17,434 nucleotides of DNA from a virus, in the UHGV virus genome UHGV-1770886, one strand, 5' to 3'. The notes below the pieces were generated by a model, which searched no databases, had not been told where the DNA came from, and was given only the letters and a program-made list of their open reading frames with translations. This document shows, in pieces, positions 32-15,033 of the stretch. The translations under genes and the position numbers were made by a program. How positions within the stretch are numbered: position 1 is the first letter of the stretch; each line of letters begins with the position of its first letter.

Positions 32-3000
32 TACCGATATGCTCCACTTAACCGACCACCATCACGGGCCTGCTGTTGCATAAAGTCCGCTGCCGCTTTT
101 TTCCCGAGGTCATAAACCGCCTTCAGGGCAGCCGGACCTATCTGCCCGTTCGTGCCATCGTTATTGATCTCGATGTTGTACTGCGGGGAAAACATCGCCA
201 TACCTGACCCCCCAATATCCGCCACAACCCCCAGCTTACCGTCAGCACCACGACGCAATGGCAGAATGGCTTCAGGTCCCGCTTCCCCCATCACACCCGC
301 GCCTTTTGCAAAAGCAAAAAACGTCGGACGGTTAACCACCGTGCCACTGTAACGACTCAAATCAGCAGACTGATAAATCCCCCCATTGGCATTCAGGGAA
401 AGGCTGCTGAGATCAAATCCCAGTACACTGCCAATCCCTTTTATCGATTTCATCATGGTTGCCTGCGCCAGGATTTTCGCCATATCTGACAGCACAGAAG
501 AGGTGAAGGATTTGAAATTGAGTTTGCCGGTAGTGACAAAAGTTGCCAGGCCATTTCCCATGTTGCTGAAGGCTGACGAGAACACCTGTTCTGCTGTTTC
601 TGCCGTATTATCTGCATCCACGGTAAAATCCTGAAATGCACGCAGGACTCCGTTTTTCCAGTTACCCTGCACAACTTCAAGCTGTTGCCAGTAACGGCGA
701 TTCTCATTCAGTTGTCGGTTCAGGCTCTCCGTCAGCGCCTGCTCGGCCTTTCTGTAGTCATCCGTGTTATATGTCCCTTTCTGCTCACTATCCCGCCTCA
801 ACTGCTCCAGCTGTTGCTGGTATTTCTGGCGAAGACTCAGTTGTACCTGATATCGCTGTCGCTGCTGATCACCCATACCCACCGTGGCGATATCCAGGTC
901 ATGTTGCTGACGCTGAGCGCGCTCTTCTTCAGCCAGTTGACTGGTCAGCTGAATTGTTTTTTTCTTCAGCTCGTTGAGTGCCGTCTGTTTCTGAAGCTCC
1001 TGCTGTTTTACATCCAGCAGCGTCAGTGCCTGAATCAGTTCATCTTTACGGGCCAGCACACTCTTTTCATCTGCCGTCAGTTTTTTCCCGTCCAGGTCGC
1101 TGATGCGCTGCTGCAGAGCCAGAAGCTGTTTATGCGCTTCTGTCATCCTTTCCGTGGCAATGCCTGCTGACTGTCTGGCAGCAGCAATCTGTCCTTCCAC
1201 CTGTGCCTGTTGCTGACTGTACTGCAGCAATAACCGGGTGGCCTCATCATTACGGGTTTCGCGTGTTTTTTTCTTACCGGATGCCAGGGCTTTCTCGTAA
1301 CGTTCATTTTCACGTTGTATCGCCGCATCCCTGACAGCCTGATCGGCGTACTGCATGGCATTAATACGCGCAATTTCACGCTGATGTCGTGCTGCTTCCG
1401 TTTCATTCATCCGGTTCAGTGCAGCATTTTCAGCATTACGGCGTTTCTGTTGCTCCTGATAATTCCGCTCTGCCTGCTCTTTTGCATCCTGCAAATCCTT
1501 CTGGCGTTTTTTCTCCTGAAGATCGTTAAGACGCTGCTGATCGTATTCAACCTGAGAAGATGATGCCGTCCAGGGGAGTCTTTTCGCCCGCGACACTTTC
1601 TCCTGTAAAGCGGCAATCTGTTCATCCAGCGAGTCTTCACGACCAATATTCATGGCCGCATCCCAGAAACGACTCCACAAATCAGACAGATACTTCAGCG
1701 TACTGCCAAGCGCATTGAGGTTATTATCAATATCCGCAGTACGCCGACCGGTTTCCTCTGCCAGTGCAGACATGGCTATCCGTGCAGCATCACTGGACCG
1801 CCCCTGCTCCCCAAGGACGCGTATCTGCTCAAGCTGAGTGGCAGTAAGAAAATGCAGCTCATTGTCCAGAGCCTTCGCGGCATTTACAGGATCATCCTTC
1901 AGCCGCTTAAACTGATTTATGGTATCGCTGACCGACTGGCCAACCGATCGCTCCATCTGTGCGGCAACTCTCGCCACCATACCGATATCGTTTCCACGAA
2001 ATGCACCACTCCCCACCACCTGAGCCAGCGCACCGGCTGCAGCATGTTGCGTGATACCATTCCCGGAAATAGCACGACTGAGCGTCCACAGCTGCCCGGC
2101 AGTGACTCCGGCATAATGCCCCGTCAGCGACAACTGGCGGTTAAATTCTTCCCCCTCCTTCTGACCGTCATACCAGGCTTTACCCAGACCATAGACGGCC
2201 GCGGCAATACCGCCAATAACCCCGCCAAGCATCATGCCTTTCGGTGACATCAGTGTGTCTATCCATCCGGCACGGTTAGCCAGCGTTATCCCGGATCCCC
2301 TCAGCGCCCCTAAATTGCCGCGGGCCAGTTCACCTATCAGAACGCCTATCTCCTGGCGGGCTGCTGCACTTTTCAGACCCAGCGAATGCGTGGCTTTTCC
2401 TGCCTGCTCCATTTTGCGGATATACACTTCTGCAGCACTGCTTACCCCCAGCTGGGCTGCCTTAGCACGAAGCAACTCAGAAGATGAAAGATTCAGGCGG
2501 GTTGCCTGCTCTTTAAGCTGACGGATAAACGCCACTTTCTGTCGGGTAGCCTCTTCCTCAGCCTGTGTAAGAACACGGGTTTTCGCAGTAACCTCAGAAA
2601 TCAGCGCCAGATAATCCTGCTGACCAATCCCGCCACTGTTTCTGGCCTGTCGGATCTGCTGCTGAATACGCTGTAATTCCTGCAGCCCCGCACTGGCCTG
2701 TTTCACACTGTCAATCTGACGATAAAACGCAGCAGCCGCTTTATCCTGAGCCTCCGCCAGAGCCATGGCCTGCGCCTGTTCCTCGCGCATTTTCTGGCTC
2801 AGTGCCTCCATGCGCTGGCGGGTTTTCTCCACCTCGCGGGCCATGCGTTCATGAGCCTGTGCGTTCTTCTCCACCGTCTGCGCATGGACGGATGCGGCTG
2901 TTGCAGCCGAAGAAGCTGCCTGCGTTGTCTGCCGGGCGGCCTGAGTCTGACGCTCCATAAAACGCTGCATACGGGCAGAAGACCGTTCTGCATCGCTGGC

Positions 3001-3096
3001 TGCACCATTCAGAAGGTTTTTGATACGGGGAATTTCATTTTTAAACTCTGCCGCATCAATCCCCAAATCAATGACCAGGTTGGCTATCTGGTCCAT
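31..3096 (-). CDS. H: tail tape measure protein (lambda gpH-like), 1021 aa from internal Met
   Basis: ORF track 31..3126. Start moved to ATG at 3096 (MDQIANLVIDLGIDAAEF, cf. lambda H MAEPVGDLVVDLSLDAARF), preceded by GGAGGT 8 nt upstream. C-terminus INNDGTNGQIGPAALKAVYD matches lambda H. Long Q/E/R/K-rich helical middle typical of tape measures. Confidence 0.9.
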   Translation of the reverse strand: MDQIANLVIDLGIDAAEFKNEIPRIKNLLNGAASDAERSSARMQRFMERQTQAARQTTQAASSAATAASVHAQTVEKNAQAHERMAREVEKTRQRMEALSQKMREEQAQAMALAEAQDKAAAAFYRQIDSVKQASAGLQELQRIQQQIRQARNSGGIGQQDYLALISEVTAKTRVLTQAEEEATRQKVAFIRQLKEQATRLNLSSSELLRAKAAQLGVSSAAEVYIRKMEQAGKATHSLGLKSAAARQEIGVLIGELARGNLGALRGSGITLANRAGWIDTLMSPKGMMLGGVIGGIAAAVYGLGKAWYDGQKEGEEFNRQLSLTGHYAGVTAGQLWTLSRAISGNGITQHAAAGALAQVVGSGAFRGNDIGMVARVAAQMERSVGQSVSDTINQFKRLKDDPVNAAKALDNELHFLTATQLEQIRVLGEQGRSSDAARIAMSALAEETGRRTADIDNNLNALGSTLKYLSDLWSRFWDAAMNIGREDSLDEQIAALQEKVSRAKRLPWTASSSQVEYDQQRLNDLQEKKRQKDLQDAKEQAERNYQEQQKRRNAENAALNRMNETEAARHQREIARINAMQYADQAVRDAAIQRENERYEKALASGKKKTRETRNDEATRLLLQYSQQQAQVEGQIAAARQSAGIATERMTEAHKQLLALQQRISDLDGKKLTADEKSVLARKDELIQALTLLDVKQQELQKQTALNELKKKTIQLTSQLAEEERAQRQQHDLDIATVGMGDQQRQRYQVQLSLRQKYQQQLEQLRRDSEQKGTYNTDDYRKAEQALTESLNRQLNENRRYWQQLEVVQGNWKNGVLRAFQDFTVDADNTAETAEQVFSSAFSNMGNGLATFVTTGKLNFKSFTSSVLSDMAKILAQATMMKSIKGIGSVLGFDLSSLSLNANGGIYQSADLSRYSGTVVNRPTFFAFAKGAGVMGEAGPEAILPLRRGADGKLGVVADIGGSGMAMFSPQYNIEINNDGTNGQIGPAALKAVYDLGKKAAADFMQQQARDGGRLSGAYR

Positions 3097-3418
3097 AACG
3101 CACACCTCCGGAAATACCTTCCCCAAGATGCATCAGTTCTTCGTCCGTTCGCTCCGGTATCCCGTTCTCTTCCGGTAAAAGGCTGAAATCAGCCACCGCA
3201 GCATCACTGCTGCCGGACACCATTCTCACGATCAATGCCTTCAGCGAGGCAAACTGCGCATCCATCCACACATCACTGAAGCTCTGCATCCGGAAATAAT
3301 CGCCCCACTCACCAAGCTCAGTGGCCGACATTTCCGACAGCATCCGCCGCCAGTCTGCCCGCCGGAACTCCCGGGCAAGCCGCATGACAAACTGCATTTC
3401 CCGCGTCAGGACTTTTCC
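3068..3418 (-). CDS. T: T-frame extension of the tail assembly chaperone (G-T fusion via programmed -1 frameshift)
   Basis: Open -1 frame continues from the end of G through 3068 and overlaps the H start by 29 nt, as in lambda G/T/H. Heptamer GGAAAAG (mRNA sense, plus 3412..3418) sits 2 codons before the G stop; lambda uses GGGAAAG at the equivalent place. Confidence 0.6.
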   Translation of the reverse strand, partial: GKVLTREMQFVMRLAREFRRADWRRMLSEMSATELGEWGDYFRMQSFSDVWMDAQFASLKALIVRMVSGSSDAAVADFSLLPEENGIPERTDEELMHLGEGISGGVRYGPDSQPGH

Positions 3419-9753: not shown

Positions 9754-9965
9754 CAGAACCTCGCAAGCCGGTACCCGGGATGCCCCCGTCGTCGTGTAAT
9801 CAGAGCCGCAAGGCGGCGCTCCCACTCCTGCCGTCCCTGCCGGATCTCAGATAAGTTTTCCATGGTCATCTGCTGACCATTAAAGGTGACGGATTTTCCG
9901 TCCAGCACCGCCATTTCAGCTTCCGTATAACGCTGAATCATGGCTTCGATATCATTCTGGTTCAT
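9753..9965 (-). CDS. W: head-tail joining / head completion protein (lambda gpW-like)
   Basis: 70 aa, AVLDGKSVTFNGQQMTMENLSEIRQ ... ITRRRGHPGY is gpW-like (lambda W: ...[28 protein letters not shown]...RRRGPAGFYV). ATG at 9965 has GGAGG 6 nt upstream and overlaps the terminase stop (ATGA). Confidence 0.8.
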   Translation of the reverse strand: MNQNDIEAMIQRYTEAEMAVLDGKSVTFNGQQMTMENLSEIRQGRQEWERRLAALITRRRGHPGYRLARF

Positions 9966-12064
9966 AACCATCCTCCGGAAGTCAGCCAGGGGTTAACATC
10001 GTCAGTTACTGTTTTCTTCCGTTTTTGTTTTTTAACAGGCGTGGATACCGGTTCCGGTGTGGGTGACGGTTCGGTACTGTCCGGGACACACTCCAGCCAG
10101 GTTTCCCGGCTCGCCCACTCCGGTGCATCCGGCCAGCGGATCTTTTCGTATCCATGCAGAATGACCAGAGCCTCGGCATACACCATCAGGTCAAAAGCTT
10201 CGTTGGCACCGCGACCCGGCTTACTCCATTTCCCGTCACTGCTCCGCTCTTCATACGTCAGTTCGTCGTAAAACCAGCTCCCCAGCCAGTCAGGGAAATG
10301 CACATAGCCGGGACCTGGCGAGTCACGCCATAACGCGTTATTCACCCGGTCTTTCAGGGCATCCGTCTGAAGAAGCCAGAGCGGTACATCACCTGCGGCC
10401 TGCGCCCGTCGGCCCGTTCGTCCGGTGTTATCAGGGAATGTACGGGTGATCAGTTTTGCGCGCCGGATGCTGTCGCCCTTAAACAGGTAAATACGTTTAC
10501 CAAGGCCATCACGACGGCAACGACGCCAGAATTTATAGGCATTATCAGTGACTCCGTCTTCACCGCCGGAGTCCACCGCCATTGCCATCAGTCGCATTTG
10601 TTGAGAAGGATCGGAGGCCAGCGGCCAGCTTTTATGAAAAACATCCGTCAGCAGGACATCCCAGTCTTCCGGATAGCTGGCCGGATCAATTCGCTGGCTC
10701 TCCCCGTCGCTGTCACCGCGCAATGACTGCGTGATGTTGTAACGATCAATAATCCAGCGTTCGCCACGGCTGCCATAGCCCGTTACCTGAACCACAAAAC
10801 GGCGATGACGTCCCGCCTGCACATCAACTGTCGCCACCAGGAAATTAACGCCATCCGGCACACTGCGGGAAGGAACTGGCTCTGCCCGCTGCTCAAGCAG
10901 TTCACTTTTTCGTTGCTCCATGCTGGCACGGGGAAGATAAGGTAATCCCCAGTCGGTATTGATAACCGTCTTGAGTGTTTCTTCACTTCCGGTTGTCTCG
11001 TATTCCTGTTCTGCAGCAAGCAGTTTGTAAACGAGTTGCGAGAGTGTCTGGTAAGCAGCTGCCGGACCCTCCATCCAGAATGACGCAATACGTGAGCGTC
11101 GGGGATCACCATAACGACTGCCATCCGCATTGATGGATTCACCATCCCGCAACCAGACCCCACGTCCGTTCAGCTCACGTTTTTGTTCAGGCATAATCCG
11201 TCCTGAACAGGAAGGACACTGAATATAAGCCGCCTCACTTGCCAGCACGGGATCGGCAATATCACGGAAACCAGCAACCACATCGCCGCAGGGCTGAAAA
11301 TACTCACCACAGTGTGGACAGGGCCAGTACCAGCGACGGCGATCGCCACGGTTATAGAGCGACAGTATCCCCGTGGTTGGTGGAGCCTCATGCGGTGAAG
11401 TCCGTCGCCATTTCACATCCTTCACATCCCTGCCGGGGGAACTCTCCACCAGCGTCATACCACTGGACATAAATGTGGTGGTACGTTTTGAGGCAAGAGA
11501 GAAGGCATCCCCCTCGCCATCAATATCTTCCGGAAAACGGTCATAATCCGTCAGCGCCACGCATTTATAATCTGATGAGGACATGATATTGACTGACGGC
11601 CAGCCGATTTTCAGGTAGTTGCCAGCAAGGAATGTTCTGTCATAAACGTTGTTGTCATTTTTGTTCGGACTCAGGCGACTGACCACTTCCGGGCTGACGC
11701 GAAACGTTCTGGCAAGTCGTTTTTTGGAGTGTTCGCGGGCTTTTTCCTCCGTCATCTGAATGATCAGCATATCAGCAGGATCGCAAATCACGTTGTAAAT
11801 CACCCAGCCGTCAATCAGGCCGATAGTCTTGCCAGTTCGTGCCGGGCCAACAAATATCACTGCGTCGTATTCACGCGAGGCCAGGCAGTTCATCGGCTCA
11901 ATAACATACGGTGCCACCAGCGGATCCCACGGGACTGAGTTCCCGGCCCCCATGGGCACCCGCATATACTGAGCAACGGCATCAGCAACCCGCATTCGTC
12001 TCGGTGCGCGAAGGATATAACCTGAATCGGTTCGTGCTGCCTTTGCGGTTTCCTGATTCAGCAT
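9962..12064 (-). CDS. A: terminase large subunit (lambda gpA-like)
   Basis: 700 aa. Walker A-like GPARTGKT. CPHCGEYFQP zinc-ribbon-like motif parallels lambda A ACPHCGEEQYL. Start ATG overlaps the small-subunit stop (TAATG) with AGGAGGAG upstream. Confidence 0.9.
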   Translation of the reverse strand: MLNQETAKAARTDSGYILRAPRRMRVADAVAQYMRVPMGAGNSVPWDPLVAPYVIEPMNCLASREYDAVIFVGPARTGKTIGLIDGWVIYNVICDPADMLIIQMTEEKAREHSKKRLARTFRVSPEVVSRLSPNKNDNNVYDRTFLAGNYLKIGWPSVNIMSSSDYKCVALTDYDRFPEDIDGEGDAFSLASKRTTTFMSSGMTLVESSPGRDVKDVKWRRTSPHEAPPTTGILSLYNRGDRRRWYWPCPHCGEYFQPCGDVVAGFRDIADPVLASEAAYIQCPSCSGRIMPEQKRELNGRGVWLRDGESINADGSRYGDPRRSRIASFWMEGPAAAYQTLSQLVYKLLAAEQEYETTGSEETLKTVINTDWGLPYLPRASMEQRKSELLEQRAEPVPSRSVPDGVNFLVATVDVQAGRHRRFVVQVTGYGSRGERWIIDRYNITQSLRGDSDGESQRIDPASYPEDWDVLLTDVFHKSWPLASDPSQQMRLMAMAVDSGGEDGVTDNAYKFWRRCRRDGLGKRIYLFKGDSIRRAKLITRTFPDNTGRTGRRAQAAGDVPLWLLQTDALKDRVNNALWRDSPGPGYVHFPDWLGSWFYDELTYEERSSDGKWSKPGRGANEAFDLMVYAEALVILHGYEKIRWPDAPEWASRETWLECVPDSTEPSPTPEPVSTPVKKQKRKKTVTDDVNPWLTSGGWL

Positions 12065-12555
12065 TACTCCTCCTGCTGTAATTCCTCCTCATCATCCGCA
12101 CCTGCTTCGGTCACCCGCAGGGCTATCTGATCGCGCAGATCATCAATAATGGACTGAACACGGCTCACAGCGGCAGGCTGCAGGCCGCAGTCACGTTCCA
12201 GAATATCCGGTAATGTCTCCAGCACCTGCACGACCGCTTTTGCCCAGATGGCAAACTCCCGTCTGACATCACTGGCCGGAATGAGTTGTGCCGTTTCCTG
12301 TTCGAACTTAAGACGCTCACGTTCAGACTGATACCAGGCTTTGCGTTCATGTGGATCCATTTCGCCCTCAGCAACCGGCGGTGGTAACCCCATAAATTCA
12401 GTCAGAATATCGGTCAACCGGTATAGCTTGAGTTTGTCATGTCCACCAGCGGGACGAATGTTTTTCAGTCTTGCCACGACAGTCTGGCGGTGCAGACCAG
12501 ATAAAGCCGCCAGTTGATTAATATTCAGCACCAGGTTTTTCAACTCATGATCCAT
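12064..12555 (-). CDS. Nu1: terminase small subunit (lambda Nu1-like), N-terminal HTH
   Basis: 163 aa. N-terminal LNINQLAALSGLHRQTVVARL is a winged-HTH like Nu1. Acidic C-terminal tail. GGAGG upstream of ATG 12555. About 185 bp downstream of the putative cosN, the same spacing as lambda. Confidence 0.8.
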   Translation of the reverse strand: MDHELKNLVLNINQLAALSGLHRQTVVARLKNIRPAGGHDKLKLYRLTDILTEFMGLPPPVAEGEMDPHERKAWYQSERERLKFEQETAQLIPASDVRREFAIWAKAVVQVLETLPDILERDCGLQPAAVSRVQSIIDDLRDQIALRVTEAGADDEEELQQEE

Positions 12556-12724
12556 ATTTCCTCCGGAGAGCTTTAAACATGCATCGTGCGAACAACTTTA
12601 AGAAAACGCGTTCGATGTCGAACAAAAAACACTCAACTCGACATACAAAAAACAAACAACCATTAATAATCAATAAGATGCAAAGATGATGGTGGCCGAT
12701 AAAAATGCAAAAACTAGCCTTTTT

Positions 12725-12775
12725 CCGCGACGCTCCCGCCCCGTGGCAGGGACCCCCACTGGGAGGACCCGACAG
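12725..12775 (-). other. cos site (cosN with flanking cosQ-like sequence) of a lambda-type packaging system
   Basis: Minus-strand sequence ...CCACG GGGCGGGAGCGT CGCGGAAAA... aligns without gaps to recalled lambda ...TTACG GGGCGGCGACCT CGCGGGTTTT... (8 of 12 overhang positions identical, both flanks conserved). Upstream GGGAGGACCCG parallels lambda GGAAAGGACCCG. Confidence 0.5.
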
Positions 12776-13107
12776 CCTGACAACCGTGACGAGCATCTGA
12801 AACAGAGCGTTACATAATGGCATGGGGATAATTCAGAAGGACATCACAGCATGCCCACACAAATTAGTGTGAGTGTCCTGTTTCTTACTACGCGCAGGAC
12901 TGACGAGCATGAGGGGAAAATACGCGAACCGAAATGCCTTATCTTCAGAAATGCAGCCGGCATCCGAACTGGACGATATTGTAAATTCACCTAAATACGA
13001 GGCATTGCTGTAGTTGAATTGCAGTACTGTATTAGCCTTACAGTGACAGAATACGATATTGACTCTGTCACTTGTGAAATGGTCAGAATGGTTAGCAGTT
13101 ATGGTGA

Positions 13108-13314
13108 TCAGTCAACCACCAGGGAATAATCCTTCGTATTCTTATCGTGCTTTACTAACGCGGCCTCAATTGCCCTGAATGCTTCCAGAGATACTTGATG
13201 TTCTATACATGCAATTACAACATCCGGGTAACCCATCGAAATGGTGCTATTAAGCATAGTTTTTACACGAACCTGCTCCTGGGAGGGGGCATCAGTGTAT
13301 TGATCTTTATGCAT
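13108..13314 (-). CDS. small conserved lambdoid hypothetical protein (68 aa)
   Basis: ATG 13314 with GGAG 8 nt upstream. Protein ...[53 protein letters not shown] recall a near-identical 68-aa ORF near the right end of lambda, but could not verify this. Confidence 0.5.
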
Positions 13315-13510
13315 TTTGTCGCTCCATTCGTTTGCTCTTCACTTGCGGCTAAAAATATAACGTCAAATCACTCAGCATGAAAGAGTGAAAGTTTCAGCGC
13401 GTTTCCCTTACATAATCTGTCGTTTGTATTCTCTTCAGGCATACCGGAAAGACTAGGTATTGTCACACAACCAATACCATTGACAATCGAGATTTATATC
13501 TATTCGGTAA

Positions 13511-13546
13511 TGTTTAAATATAACAAAACCCCGTAAAAACGAGGTT
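13511..13546 (-). terminator. putative rho-independent terminator downstream of the gns-like gene
   Basis: Minus-strand AACCTCG-TTTTTA-CGGGGTT (7-bp stem with one G.U) followed by a U-rich run (TTGTTATATTT). Confidence 0.4.
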
Positions 13547-13609
13547 TATGGGTAATTTGTATTGTTGAATAGCATCTGATGAGAAATTGATGCTAATACT
13601 ATAAACATG

Positions 13610-13783
13610 CTAGATTAAATCAATCTTGATATCATAGCTTTCAAGACCAGTCATTTTTTCCCGTGCAGTAAACTGGATACTGGTAACTTCTTTCCCGGTC
13701 TTTTTCTTAAGCTCAATGATTTTTTTTGTTATATATTCAGAAATATCTGCTTCTGTTTTTGTTTTTAACTCTTCAATGTTCAT
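13610..13783 (-). CDS. gnsB: GnsA/GnsB-family small protein (57 aa)
   Basis: MNIEELKTKTEADISEYITKKIIELKKKTGKEVTSIQFTAREKMTGLESYDIKIDLI matches my recollection of E. coli GnsA/GnsB in length and motifs. AGAGGAA upstream; second of two tandem ATGs chosen for spacing. Symbol gnsB is from Qin-prophage-like synteny and is not verified. Confidence 0.55.
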   Translation of the reverse strand: MNIEELKTKTEADISEYITKKIIELKKKTGKEVTSIQFTAREKMTGLESYDIKIDLI

Positions 13784-13955
13784 CATTTCCTCTTTTAGTC
13801 TGTTATGACTGTCCTGGTACACAGTAGTGTCAATTATATGGAGCAAACGTATAAAAGATAAGATGAAACATCGCAATAATCAACATACGACGGTCTAAAT
13901 TTCACACAAACAGATAAAGATGATTATCATTTATTATCAATGCATTAGAATCAAA

Positions 13956-14186
13956 TCAATTCAAGAGTCTCATTGCTGCTTCCAGAATTTCTTCTGAAGT
14001 TACATGTCGATCCGCTGCTACATAAATGACTTTATGATCTCCGGTCAGAGATGGAAACCCTGCAGCCATTACAGTGAGGTGTGTTGTTTCGCCATTTGGA
14101 TATTCACGCATGATGGTGTTAACTCCGGTCATCACTGGCACTACCATTGCTGGTTCAGAGTTAAAAAAAACTATTATTTTTTTCAT
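13956..14186 (-). CDS. hypothetical small protein (76 aa from ATG; track gives an 89-aa GTG-initiated version)
   Basis: ORF track 13956..14225. The GTG start at 14225 would sit inside the terminator U-tract, so ATG 14186 (MKKIIVFFNSEPAMVVPVMTGVNTIM...) is preferred despite a weak SD. AT-rich. No family recognised. Confidence 0.35.
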   Translation of the reverse strand: MKKIIVFFNSEPAMVVPVMTGVNTIMREYPNGETTHLTVMAAGFPSLTGDHKVIYVAADRHVTSEEILEAAMRLLN

Positions 14187-14230
14187 AATGTTACCGTAAT
14201 ATGTGAGTATCCATCGACTAGACACTAAGC

Positions 14231-14250
14231 AAAAAAGCTCCCGAAGGAGC
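14231..14250 (-). terminator. putative rho-independent terminator downstream of the csp gene
   Basis: Minus-strand GCTCC-TTCG-GGAGC (5-bp GC-rich stem, tetraloop) followed immediately by TTTTTT (plus-strand AAAAAA at 14231..14236). Confidence 0.5.
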
Positions 14251-14457
14251 CTTCATTTTCACTTTCTTAAATCTAACGACAGATGGCTAACATTTAAGTA
14301 TTGTGAAATATTATCAAATGTAATCATCATTGATTTACAAAAGATACATTTTGCCCCGAAAGGATTTCTGTCAGAAACATCAAAAGATGATGTTCTATAC
14401 TGAGAACCATGGCAACACGGGCATCTAAAGTGAATATGGTTTGTAATATTTTCTACC

Positions 14458-14670
14458 TCAAAGTGCCACTACATGAACAGCTGCAGGGCCTTTAGGTCCG
14501 TTCTCAATACCAAATTCGACTTCCTGATTCTCAGTTAACGTTTTGAAATCGTTGCTCTGAATAGCTGAGAAATGCACAAACACATCTTTGCTACCATCTT
14601 TCGGCGTGATGAAACCAAAACCTTTTTCAGGGTTAAACCATTTCACTAAACCAGTCATTTTGTTAGACAT
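14458..14670 (-). CDS. cspI: CspA-family cold-shock protein (70 aa)
   Basis: [38 protein letters not shown]... carries the canonical RNP1/RNP2 cold-shock-domain motifs (KGFGFI, VFVHF). AAGG SD and csp-like leader (AAAGGTAATAA ATG). Paralog call cspI rests on synteny (csp next to Rz) and recalled sequence. Confidence 0.85.
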
Positions 14671-14814
14671 CATTATTACCTTTTGAAGAAGTTAGCCCTT
14701 GGGCAGAATGGTCCGAAAAAAAATATCAGAGAGAAAAACCAACAAGGAAATCTCAAGAGGTACAAATAATAAAATTATAACAATGACTGCTTCAGATAAT
14801 TTTGTAACAAACCA

Positions 14815-14850
14815 GAACACCATTAACGCATGATTAACCAACCATAGCAA
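14815..14850 (-). promoter_or_regulatory. candidate sigma70 promoter for the csp gene with ~145-nt leader
   Basis: Minus-strand TTGCTA (plus 14845..14850), 17-nt spacer, GTTAAT (plus 14822..14827), resembling the cspA promoter (TTGCAT / CTTAAT). AT-rich UP-like sequence upstream. Sequence inspection only. Confidence 0.3.
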
Positions 14851-15033
14851 GGATTACTTTTGTAAAGAAAAACACACGAATGAAACAATAGCTTTATTTA
14901 TTAATAAAACGTGTCATTCTGTCTAATGACCTTTTATCTTACCCTTAAGATTTCAAGGATTTTGACTCATGGAAGAGTCCTTTTTATTTAAATTTCACAT
15001 TCAGCGCTAAAAATAATCCGATTTAATATTAAT

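Follow-up and report, generated by a model that had tools for sequence, protein, structure and literature searches.

A lambda-type cos site with a predicted 12-nt cohesive end upstream of a DUF1441-type small terminase gene in an E. coli prophage

How the DNA of this phage is packaged, and at which base its virion genome would begin, are the questions raised by a short interval of the window (the whole 17,434-nt stretch of viral DNA that was analysed, UHGV virus genome UHGV-1770886). A lambda-type cos site with a variant 12-nt cohesive end had been proposed there from the letters alone, and all the strings quoted in this original prediction occur on the plus strand at the expected positions (Table 1). 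The genes in this part of the window are all on the minus strand. On that strand, positions 12770-12725 read GGGTCCT-N19-ACG/GGGCGGGAGCGT/CGCGG, the slashes bounding the putative overhang, in the wider context 5'-...GTCGGGTCCTCCCAGTGGGGGTCCCTGCCACG GGGCGGGAGCGT CGCGGAAAAAGGCTAGTTTTTGCATTTTTATCGG...-3'; the plus-strand string ACGCTCCCGCCC is the reverse complement of GGGCGGGAGCGT. Below, bp are counted from the first overhang base (12741).

We aligned this segment with the authentic genome ends of lambda (J02459), whose right end is ...CGGGTCCTTTCCGGTGATCCGACAGGTTACG and whose left end is GGGCGGCGACCTCGCGGG. The alignment, which also bears out the lambda cosN sequence of the original prediction, requires no gap and keeps both flanks as predicted: ACG precedes the nick, 8 of the 12 overhang bases are identical, and CGCGG follows. 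Mismatches are found only at bp 7, 8, 9 and 11, with bp 1-6, 10 and 12 the same, and the overhang's left half matches lambda at all six bases. CG dinucleotides flank both predicted nicks (12743-12742 and 12729-12728), and the rotational symmetry of cosN covers 8 of 16 bp in the window vs 10 of 16 in lambda. Work of the Feiss laboratory showed that natural cosN differences among lambda-like phages sit in bp 7-12, that mutations in this interval, such as C11G, are phenotypically silent, and that the CG flanks, the left cosN half and cosQ are maintained, N15 and Gifsy-1 being natural variants that deviate from lambda in the right cosN half (PMC4669245). Since the overhang in the window differs from that of lambda at four positions of this interval only, it fits the published rule exactly. 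Judged by its sequence, the site is a genuine lambda-type cos of an already known kind, with nicks placed by homology with lambda. It makes no conceptual addition, as right-half cosN variation with cosQ and CG flanks kept was previously described.

The composite pattern shared with lambda, GGGTCCT-N19-ACGGGGCGG-NNNCNT-CGCGG, has a single occurrence in the 17.4-kb window (12725-12770, minus strand) and was found in 0 of 200 dinucleotide-preserving shuffles, so the resemblance to cos is not a matter of chance. The same figures bear on the view that the likeness to lambda is fortuitous, with headful packaging or with the region being merely part of a 92-aa ORF (12545-12823, minus strand), which we regard as extremely improbable. 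This ORF does cover cosQ, cosN and cosB, and several phage records annotate its equivalents as "hypothetical protein" (for example mEp460_059 and the one in PhiR40_1). However, it has no match in Pfam or PHROG, its would-be N-terminal part, encoded by the upstream half, is unrelated between copies, and only the stretch from cosQ to bp 34 is conserved; we therefore rejected it as a gene, which it almost certainly is not. In addition, the large terminase subunit (TerL) is of the gpA family, where 5' cohesive ends are made by lambda and by the further lambda-like phages cited (PMC4856287, PMC12315714).

Table 1. Positions of the strings, cos elements and terminase genes in the window
Feature	Positions	Strand	Basis or description
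String CCGCG	12725-12729	plus	
String ACGCTCCCGCCC	12730-12741	plus	
String CGT	12742-12744	plus	
String GGGAGGACCCG	12761-12771	plus	
cosN, 16 bp, CG/GGGCGGGAGCGT/CG	12728..12743	minus	gap-free alignment to lambda cosN
Predicted nick	12742/12741	minus	by homology
Predicted nick	12729/12730	plus	by homology
Predicted 12-nt 5' cohesive end	12730..12741	minus	left end 5'-GGGCGGGAGCGT; right-end overhang 5'-ACGCTCCCGCCC (plus strand)
cosQ core heptamer GGGTCCT, packaging-termination signal	12764..12770	minus	identical to lambda 48473-48479
bp 13-34, CGCGGAAAAAGGCTAGTTTTTG, poly-dA/poly-dT block	12708..12729	minus	position of lambda I2
cosB type A, bp 35-186, type-specific, presumed DUF1441 TerS-binding region	12556..12707	minus	type divergence from bp 35
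CAC/CAT triplet-periodic tract TATCGGCCACCATCATC, bp 41-57	12685..12701	minus	position of lambda R3
IHF-like site CATCTTATTGATT, bp 62-74	12668..12680	minus	one mismatch to YAANNNNTTGATW
Two 16-nt T-tract direct repeats	12645-12660 and 12622-12637	minus	within bp 82-127 (12615..12660)
7-nt inverted-repeat arms, one after each T-tract repeat	ATGTCGA 12638-12644; TCGACAT 12615-12621	minus	
terS, 163 aa, DUF1441/phrog_141, N-terminal HTH-like segment	12064..12555	minus	profile searches
terL, 700 aa, gpA family, ATPase and endonuclease	9962..12064	minus	Pfam GpA_ATPase 8.6e-72, GpA_nuclease 1.2e-85

The small terminase subunit gene, terS, stands directly upstream of terL, and its stop overlaps the terL start. 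Its ATG falls at bp 187 (bp 191 in lambda), with the predicted cos lying 186 nt upstream of the gene, in good agreement with the original estimate of about 185 bp. The designation of the gene as Nu1-like holds for its position and probably for a remote ancestry, whereas the family is a different one. The product matches Pfam DUF1441 (4.6e-44, 150 bits vs a cut-off of 35.1) and phrog_141, "terminase small subunit" (2.7e-77); Pfam gave no Phage_Nu1 match, DUF1441 being the best one, and BLASTP of TerS against lambda Nu1 returned nothing at E<=100. Weak reciprocal PHROG cross-matches, from the window's TerS to phrog_57 (8e-9) and from Nu1 to phrog_141 (5.6e-8), suggest a remote homology between the two families. 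TerS is 42% identical to that of cdtI and 86% identical to that of mEp460_4F5. TerL, which is presumed to make the staggered nicks, shares 25% identity with lambda gpA, 70% with Gifsy-2, 88% with cdtI and 99.7% with mEp460. Compared with cdtI (L003:733-2832), it is a mosaic: residues ~381-700, that is, the nuclease and the C-terminus, are nearly 100% identical, divergence is visibly greater in the ATPase part, and no relatedness is left in the first 20 aa, an N-terminal difference that parallels the swap of TerS type. After terL come a small DUF6148-like ORF (a weak Pfam match, below the cut-off), a lambda-family portal gene and a ClpP-protease/capsid fusion.

The overhang itself is not new, as the same 12-mer opens two deposited phage genomes. 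The records of cdtI (AB285204, NC_009514; 2007) and of Tritos (OV696610; 2022), a siphovirus that strain LF82 produces and that forms plaques (PMC9928086), both begin GGGCGGGAGCGTCGCGGAAAAAGGCTAGTTTTT..., at the predicted first base, and the last base of the Tritos record (...CTGCCACG) is the one that precedes the predicted nick. Beyond the 12-mer, identity to the window extends over bp 1-33 in both phages and over bp 1-39 in Tritos. In contrast, both carry cosB type B (with a GGCGGCGGC tract), unlike the type A of the window, and the TerS of cdtI, although of the same DUF1441 family, differs in its N-terminal DNA-binding part. The deposited phages PhiR40_1, PhiR47_1 and PhiR55_1 have the complete left arm of type A (bp 1-186) at 98.4% identity. 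Phage mEp460 (JQ182728) keeps the cosQ and the bp 13-34 block of the window with cosB type C and the overhang GGGCGGGAGCGG (bp 12 = G), a variant present in 67 IMG/VR contigs. Among 5426 complete genomes of E. coli, 2120 (~39%) contain the 79-nt core.

Other phages share parts of this design. The overhang of the Salmonella phage Gifsy-1, GGGCGGCAGCGT, equals that of the window at 11 of 12 bases, bp 7 being C and not G, and its CG flanks and GGGTCCT cosQ are shared; its flank after the overhang, CGCAGG, differs, and its Nu1/21-type terminase and heads represent a different terminase lineage. Gifsy-1 is counted among the lambda-like phages with 12-base 5' ends (Feiss laboratory; PMC4669245, PMC4856287). 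A putative cos of mEp213/LLS, GGGCGGCGCGCT, was described as an inferred lambda-like variant changed in the right half only (PMC12315714); these changes are at bp 9 and 10 relative to lambda, and its bp 13-34 block differs from that of the window. Lambda has, like the window, an AT-rich block after cosN, a terS start at ~bp 190 and a gpA-family TerL, but its cosB is unrelated and its TerS is Phage_Nu1 where that of the window is DUF1441. We dropped Gifsy-2 as a cosN comparator: its cosN and cosQ differ (GGTGGCTTCGGG), though its TerL is 70% identical. A full-text literature search with the GGGCGGGAGCGT 12-mer on both strands returned only an unrelated rat promoter paper, and no experimental termini for any phage with this cosN were found in the literature within reach. 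The papers on Tritos (PMC9928086) and on infant-gut coliphages (PMC6969025) do not describe how the ends were assigned, and the Ayreon announcement only guesses the cos location.

The named phages also bear on the exact position of the cuts. The cos could be real with nicks off the lambda positions, giving an overhang that is shorter, longer or shifted by at least one base, for instance 10-11 nt. In relatives whose TerL is 70% identical, the same CG flanks stand 11 bp (VT1-Sakai) or 10 bp (CP-1639) apart, these two forms are real, as they occur in 62 IMG/VR contigs, and the part of PMC9303873 that cites Vahanian 2017 reports cohesive ends down to 7-9 nt in lambda-like phages. Yet in the window exactly 12 bp separate the flanks, which is also the spacing of lambda, Gifsy-1 and mEp213, with both CG dinucleotides kept, and the depositors of cdtI and Tritos set the ends at the same bases, so that we give displaced nicks little probability. 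With the spacing found in lambda and Gifsy-1, a 12-nt 5' overhang is the simplest reading of the window.

Within the clade as a whole, the distance from ACG to CGCGG was observed to be 11, 10 or 9 bp in VT1-Sakai (L128), CP-1639 (L130) and Flotzy (L131), which read GGGCGGGCGGG, GGGCGGGCGG and GGGCGGCGC, respectively; the contigs with 10- and 11-bp spacing are loci L201-L262. Either members of the clade differ in overhang length, or the flanks do not dictate the place of one of the nicks. We also considered mEp460_4F5 (LR595868) as a natural 9-nt variant and rejected it, its exact sequence having 0 matches in IMG/VR. This linear record starts 5 nt before the predicted nick (L126:1-30, L127 end) and is without 3 nt of cosN (GCGTCGCGG to GCGCGG) exactly at the predicted right nick, a loss that is probably an assembly artefact at the physical genome ends.

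We then compared the copies of the site in IMG/VR. Exact-match scans retrieved the T12 or G12 form from over 180 contigs, and 206 copies were oriented and aligned on the nick; almost all of these matches are prophage-derived with an intact junction and are uninformative on the ends. Upstream of about -31, the copies fall into many unrelated classes (at least 10 contexts), which include lysis-proximal phage DNA and several terminator hairpins. Homology begins at GGGTCCT, the information content rising from ~0 to ~2 bits at cosQ, and the sequence from the nick to bp 34 is invariant, at maximal information, whichever of the 10 or more unrelated contexts lies upstream and whichever of at least 4 cosB types follows. 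Past bp 34, the copies split into discrete cosB types: A in the window (TATCGGCCACCATCATC...), B in cdtI and Tritos (CATGGCGGCGGCAGC...), C in mEp460 (CATTCGTCATCACCACTACTG...), an island-specific D (CATTCGTCATCATCATC...) and E in one copy only (GGGACACCACCAC...). Types A-C are each tied to their own TerS N-terminal (HTH) sequence, with a terS start at ~bp 185-187 in all three. One upstream class was found joined to different cosB types, indicating recombination within the shared core. We interpret this pattern as a common cosQ-cosN-bp 34 core read by the TerL nuclease of the clade, next to a swappable cosB read by the DUF1441 TerS variants. By analogy, this division would follow the logic of lambda, 21 and N15 in another terminase lineage, and it offers a clean illustration of a cos built from a shared TerL-recognised core and swappable TerS/cosB modules.

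Concerning the core, the cosQ-like string of the original prediction does contain the lambda heptamer, while its placement was one base off: cosQ starts 29 nt before the top-strand nick vs 30 nt in lambda (29-31 in relatives), and a strict gap-free lambda alignment leaves it one base out of register. On the other side of cosN, the bp 13-34 block is invariant or nearly so in cosB types A-D, and its bp 18-33 (AAAAAGGCTAGTTTTT) form an AT-rich, I2-like stretch that is unchanged across the cosB types. The I2 of lambda is AT-rich, covers ~bp 18-50, contains poly-dA/dT runs and is required for efficient termination (PMC4856287; PMC4669245). Between cosQ and cosN, an imperfect second cosQ-like string, GGGGTCCCT, was noticed at 12748-12756 on the minus strand; most other copies read GGGGTGGCCT or GGGGGCCCCT in its place, and it is probably incidental.

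Within cosB, the CAC/CAT tract at bp 41-57 is a candidate primary TerS site. Most cosB types of the clade have such a tract at bp 41-60 (for example CCACCATCATC and CGTCATCATCATCATC), and kindred ones, equally far from the nick, are present in types A, C and D, VT1-Sakai, mEp213, CP-1639 and Flotzy, type B having its GGCGGCGGC tract at this place. The IHF-like site at bp 62-74 may be the equivalent of lambda I1, on weak evidence: about 0.26 such sites are expected by chance in the region, and types B and C have perfect matches (TAATTTATTGATA and TAATAGATTGATA) at about the same place, the consensus having been read by eye. Finally, the repeats at bp 82-127 could be accessory TerS sites; Gifsy-2 shows the same layout of T-tracts and inverted repeats with different arms (GTGTCGAA ... 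TTCGACAC).

Taken together, the families of terS, terL and portal, the opening bases of the cdtI and Tritos records, the conserved core and the confinement of the differences to bp 7-12 support the lambda-type reading. Positions 12556-12770 of the minus strand are very probably the cohesive-end site of a lambda-like prophage (mEp460/cdtI/Gifsy-2-type) with a lambda-like packaging mechanism. By analogy with lambda, the DUF1441 TerS would bind the type-specific cosB (bp 35-186), probably aided by an IHF bend near bp 62-74, and would place the gpA-family TerL on cosN, where the endonuclease domain would nick the minus strand at ACG^GGGC and, 12 bp away, the plus strand at CCGCG^ACGC. Such staggered nicks would give virion DNA whose 5' overhangs read GGGCGGGAGCGT at the left end and the complement of this 12-mer at the right end. 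Packaging would then proceed from terS and terL into the head and tail genes and would stop at the next cos of the concatemer, through recognition of cosQ (GGGTCCT at -29), cosN and the bp 13-34 poly-dA/dT block. It counts against this scheme that the nick geometry of lambda would be transferred over a long distance, TerL being only 25% identical to gpA.

As to the host, several E. coli strains, S88, APEC O1 and MS7163 among them, carry a prophage that matches the window at 100% identity over the 3.5 kb compared (window positions 9900-13400). In S88, this 45-kb prophage comprises an integrase gene adjoining yjjG, repressor/cro, Q, holin, lysozyme, Rz, cos, terS and terL, followed by portal, protease-capsid, a full tail module and fibres, and it looks essentially complete. 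RefSeq annotates a truncated ydfR-like pseudogene between holin and lysozyme as well as a truncated tail-fibre assembly gene, and gives the cos site no annotation at all. Many E. coli lambdoid prophages are cryptic, and the two truncated genes would be in line with a relic, that is, a prophage defective in this strain whose cos is never cut or packaged. We consider this unlikely, however, since the S88 prophage keeps the set of genes listed above, from int through the fibres, with intact cos, terS and terL, the 3.5-kb segment is fully conserved across ST95-type strains, and near-identical cos and terminase modules are present in deposited phages. This particular prophage is probably active. 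For the prophage of the ExPEC/APEC strains S88, APEC O1 and MS7163, the result fixes how the DNA is packaged and at which bases the genome probably begins and ends, which is of use for annotation, helps to choose the correct base at which a phage assembly is opened and aids the reading of termini in virome data. In the interval between the lysis genes and cos (window ~13100-15000; S88 L134:22360-23922), we also observed a series of small, moron-type genes, namely cspI, ymcF, ynfN, gnsB and a 68-aa hypothetical gene.

The scans also brought out a second kind of element. In at least 19 IMG/VR contigs, two cos cores stand as direct repeats ~2.5 kb from each other, and between them lies the gene of a 637-aa ClpP-protease/capsid fusion with 57% identity to that of the window (L010, L168, L163, L172, L197, L175, L066, L139, L164, L166, L167, L169, L174, L176, L182, L184, L190, L191 and L125). 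The first core is usually followed by a phage-type B cosB and the second by the island-specific D, which adjoins the terS of the island. In L168, the full island of ~10.5 kb carries int, a Bro-N-like segment, an AAA_25 replicase, SSB, cos, the capsid fusion, cos, terS and a 95-aa ORF, its terS product being a DUF1441 protein ~70% identical to that of the window; Pfam Bro-N was confirmed on the L010 copy of the island. The L168 island presumably adjoins the host gene smrB. These elements look like cos-mimicking satellites of this phage group. They are unlike the cf-PICIs, which use hnh-terS-terL (bioRxiv 10.1101/2022.09.08.507074). Tentatively, and with more doubt than confidence, we suggest that the 63-bp block from cosQ through cosN to bp 34 could be a freely exchangeable packaging module, common to at least four TerS/cosB specificities and to the ~10.5-kb islands. 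If so, prophages like that of the window would supply TerL and tails to the satellite family, in which mimicry of cos would go together with a TerS of its own and with a homologue of the capsid.

Contig L010 has cos nicks at 96, 8231 and 10767. In its 776-3171 segment, a terL 99% identical to that of the window ends after ~333 aa, and the integrase gene of the island follows 160 nt on, reflecting either an island inside a prophage terL or a rearrangement. This broken terL is preceded by a type-C cos together with its terS.
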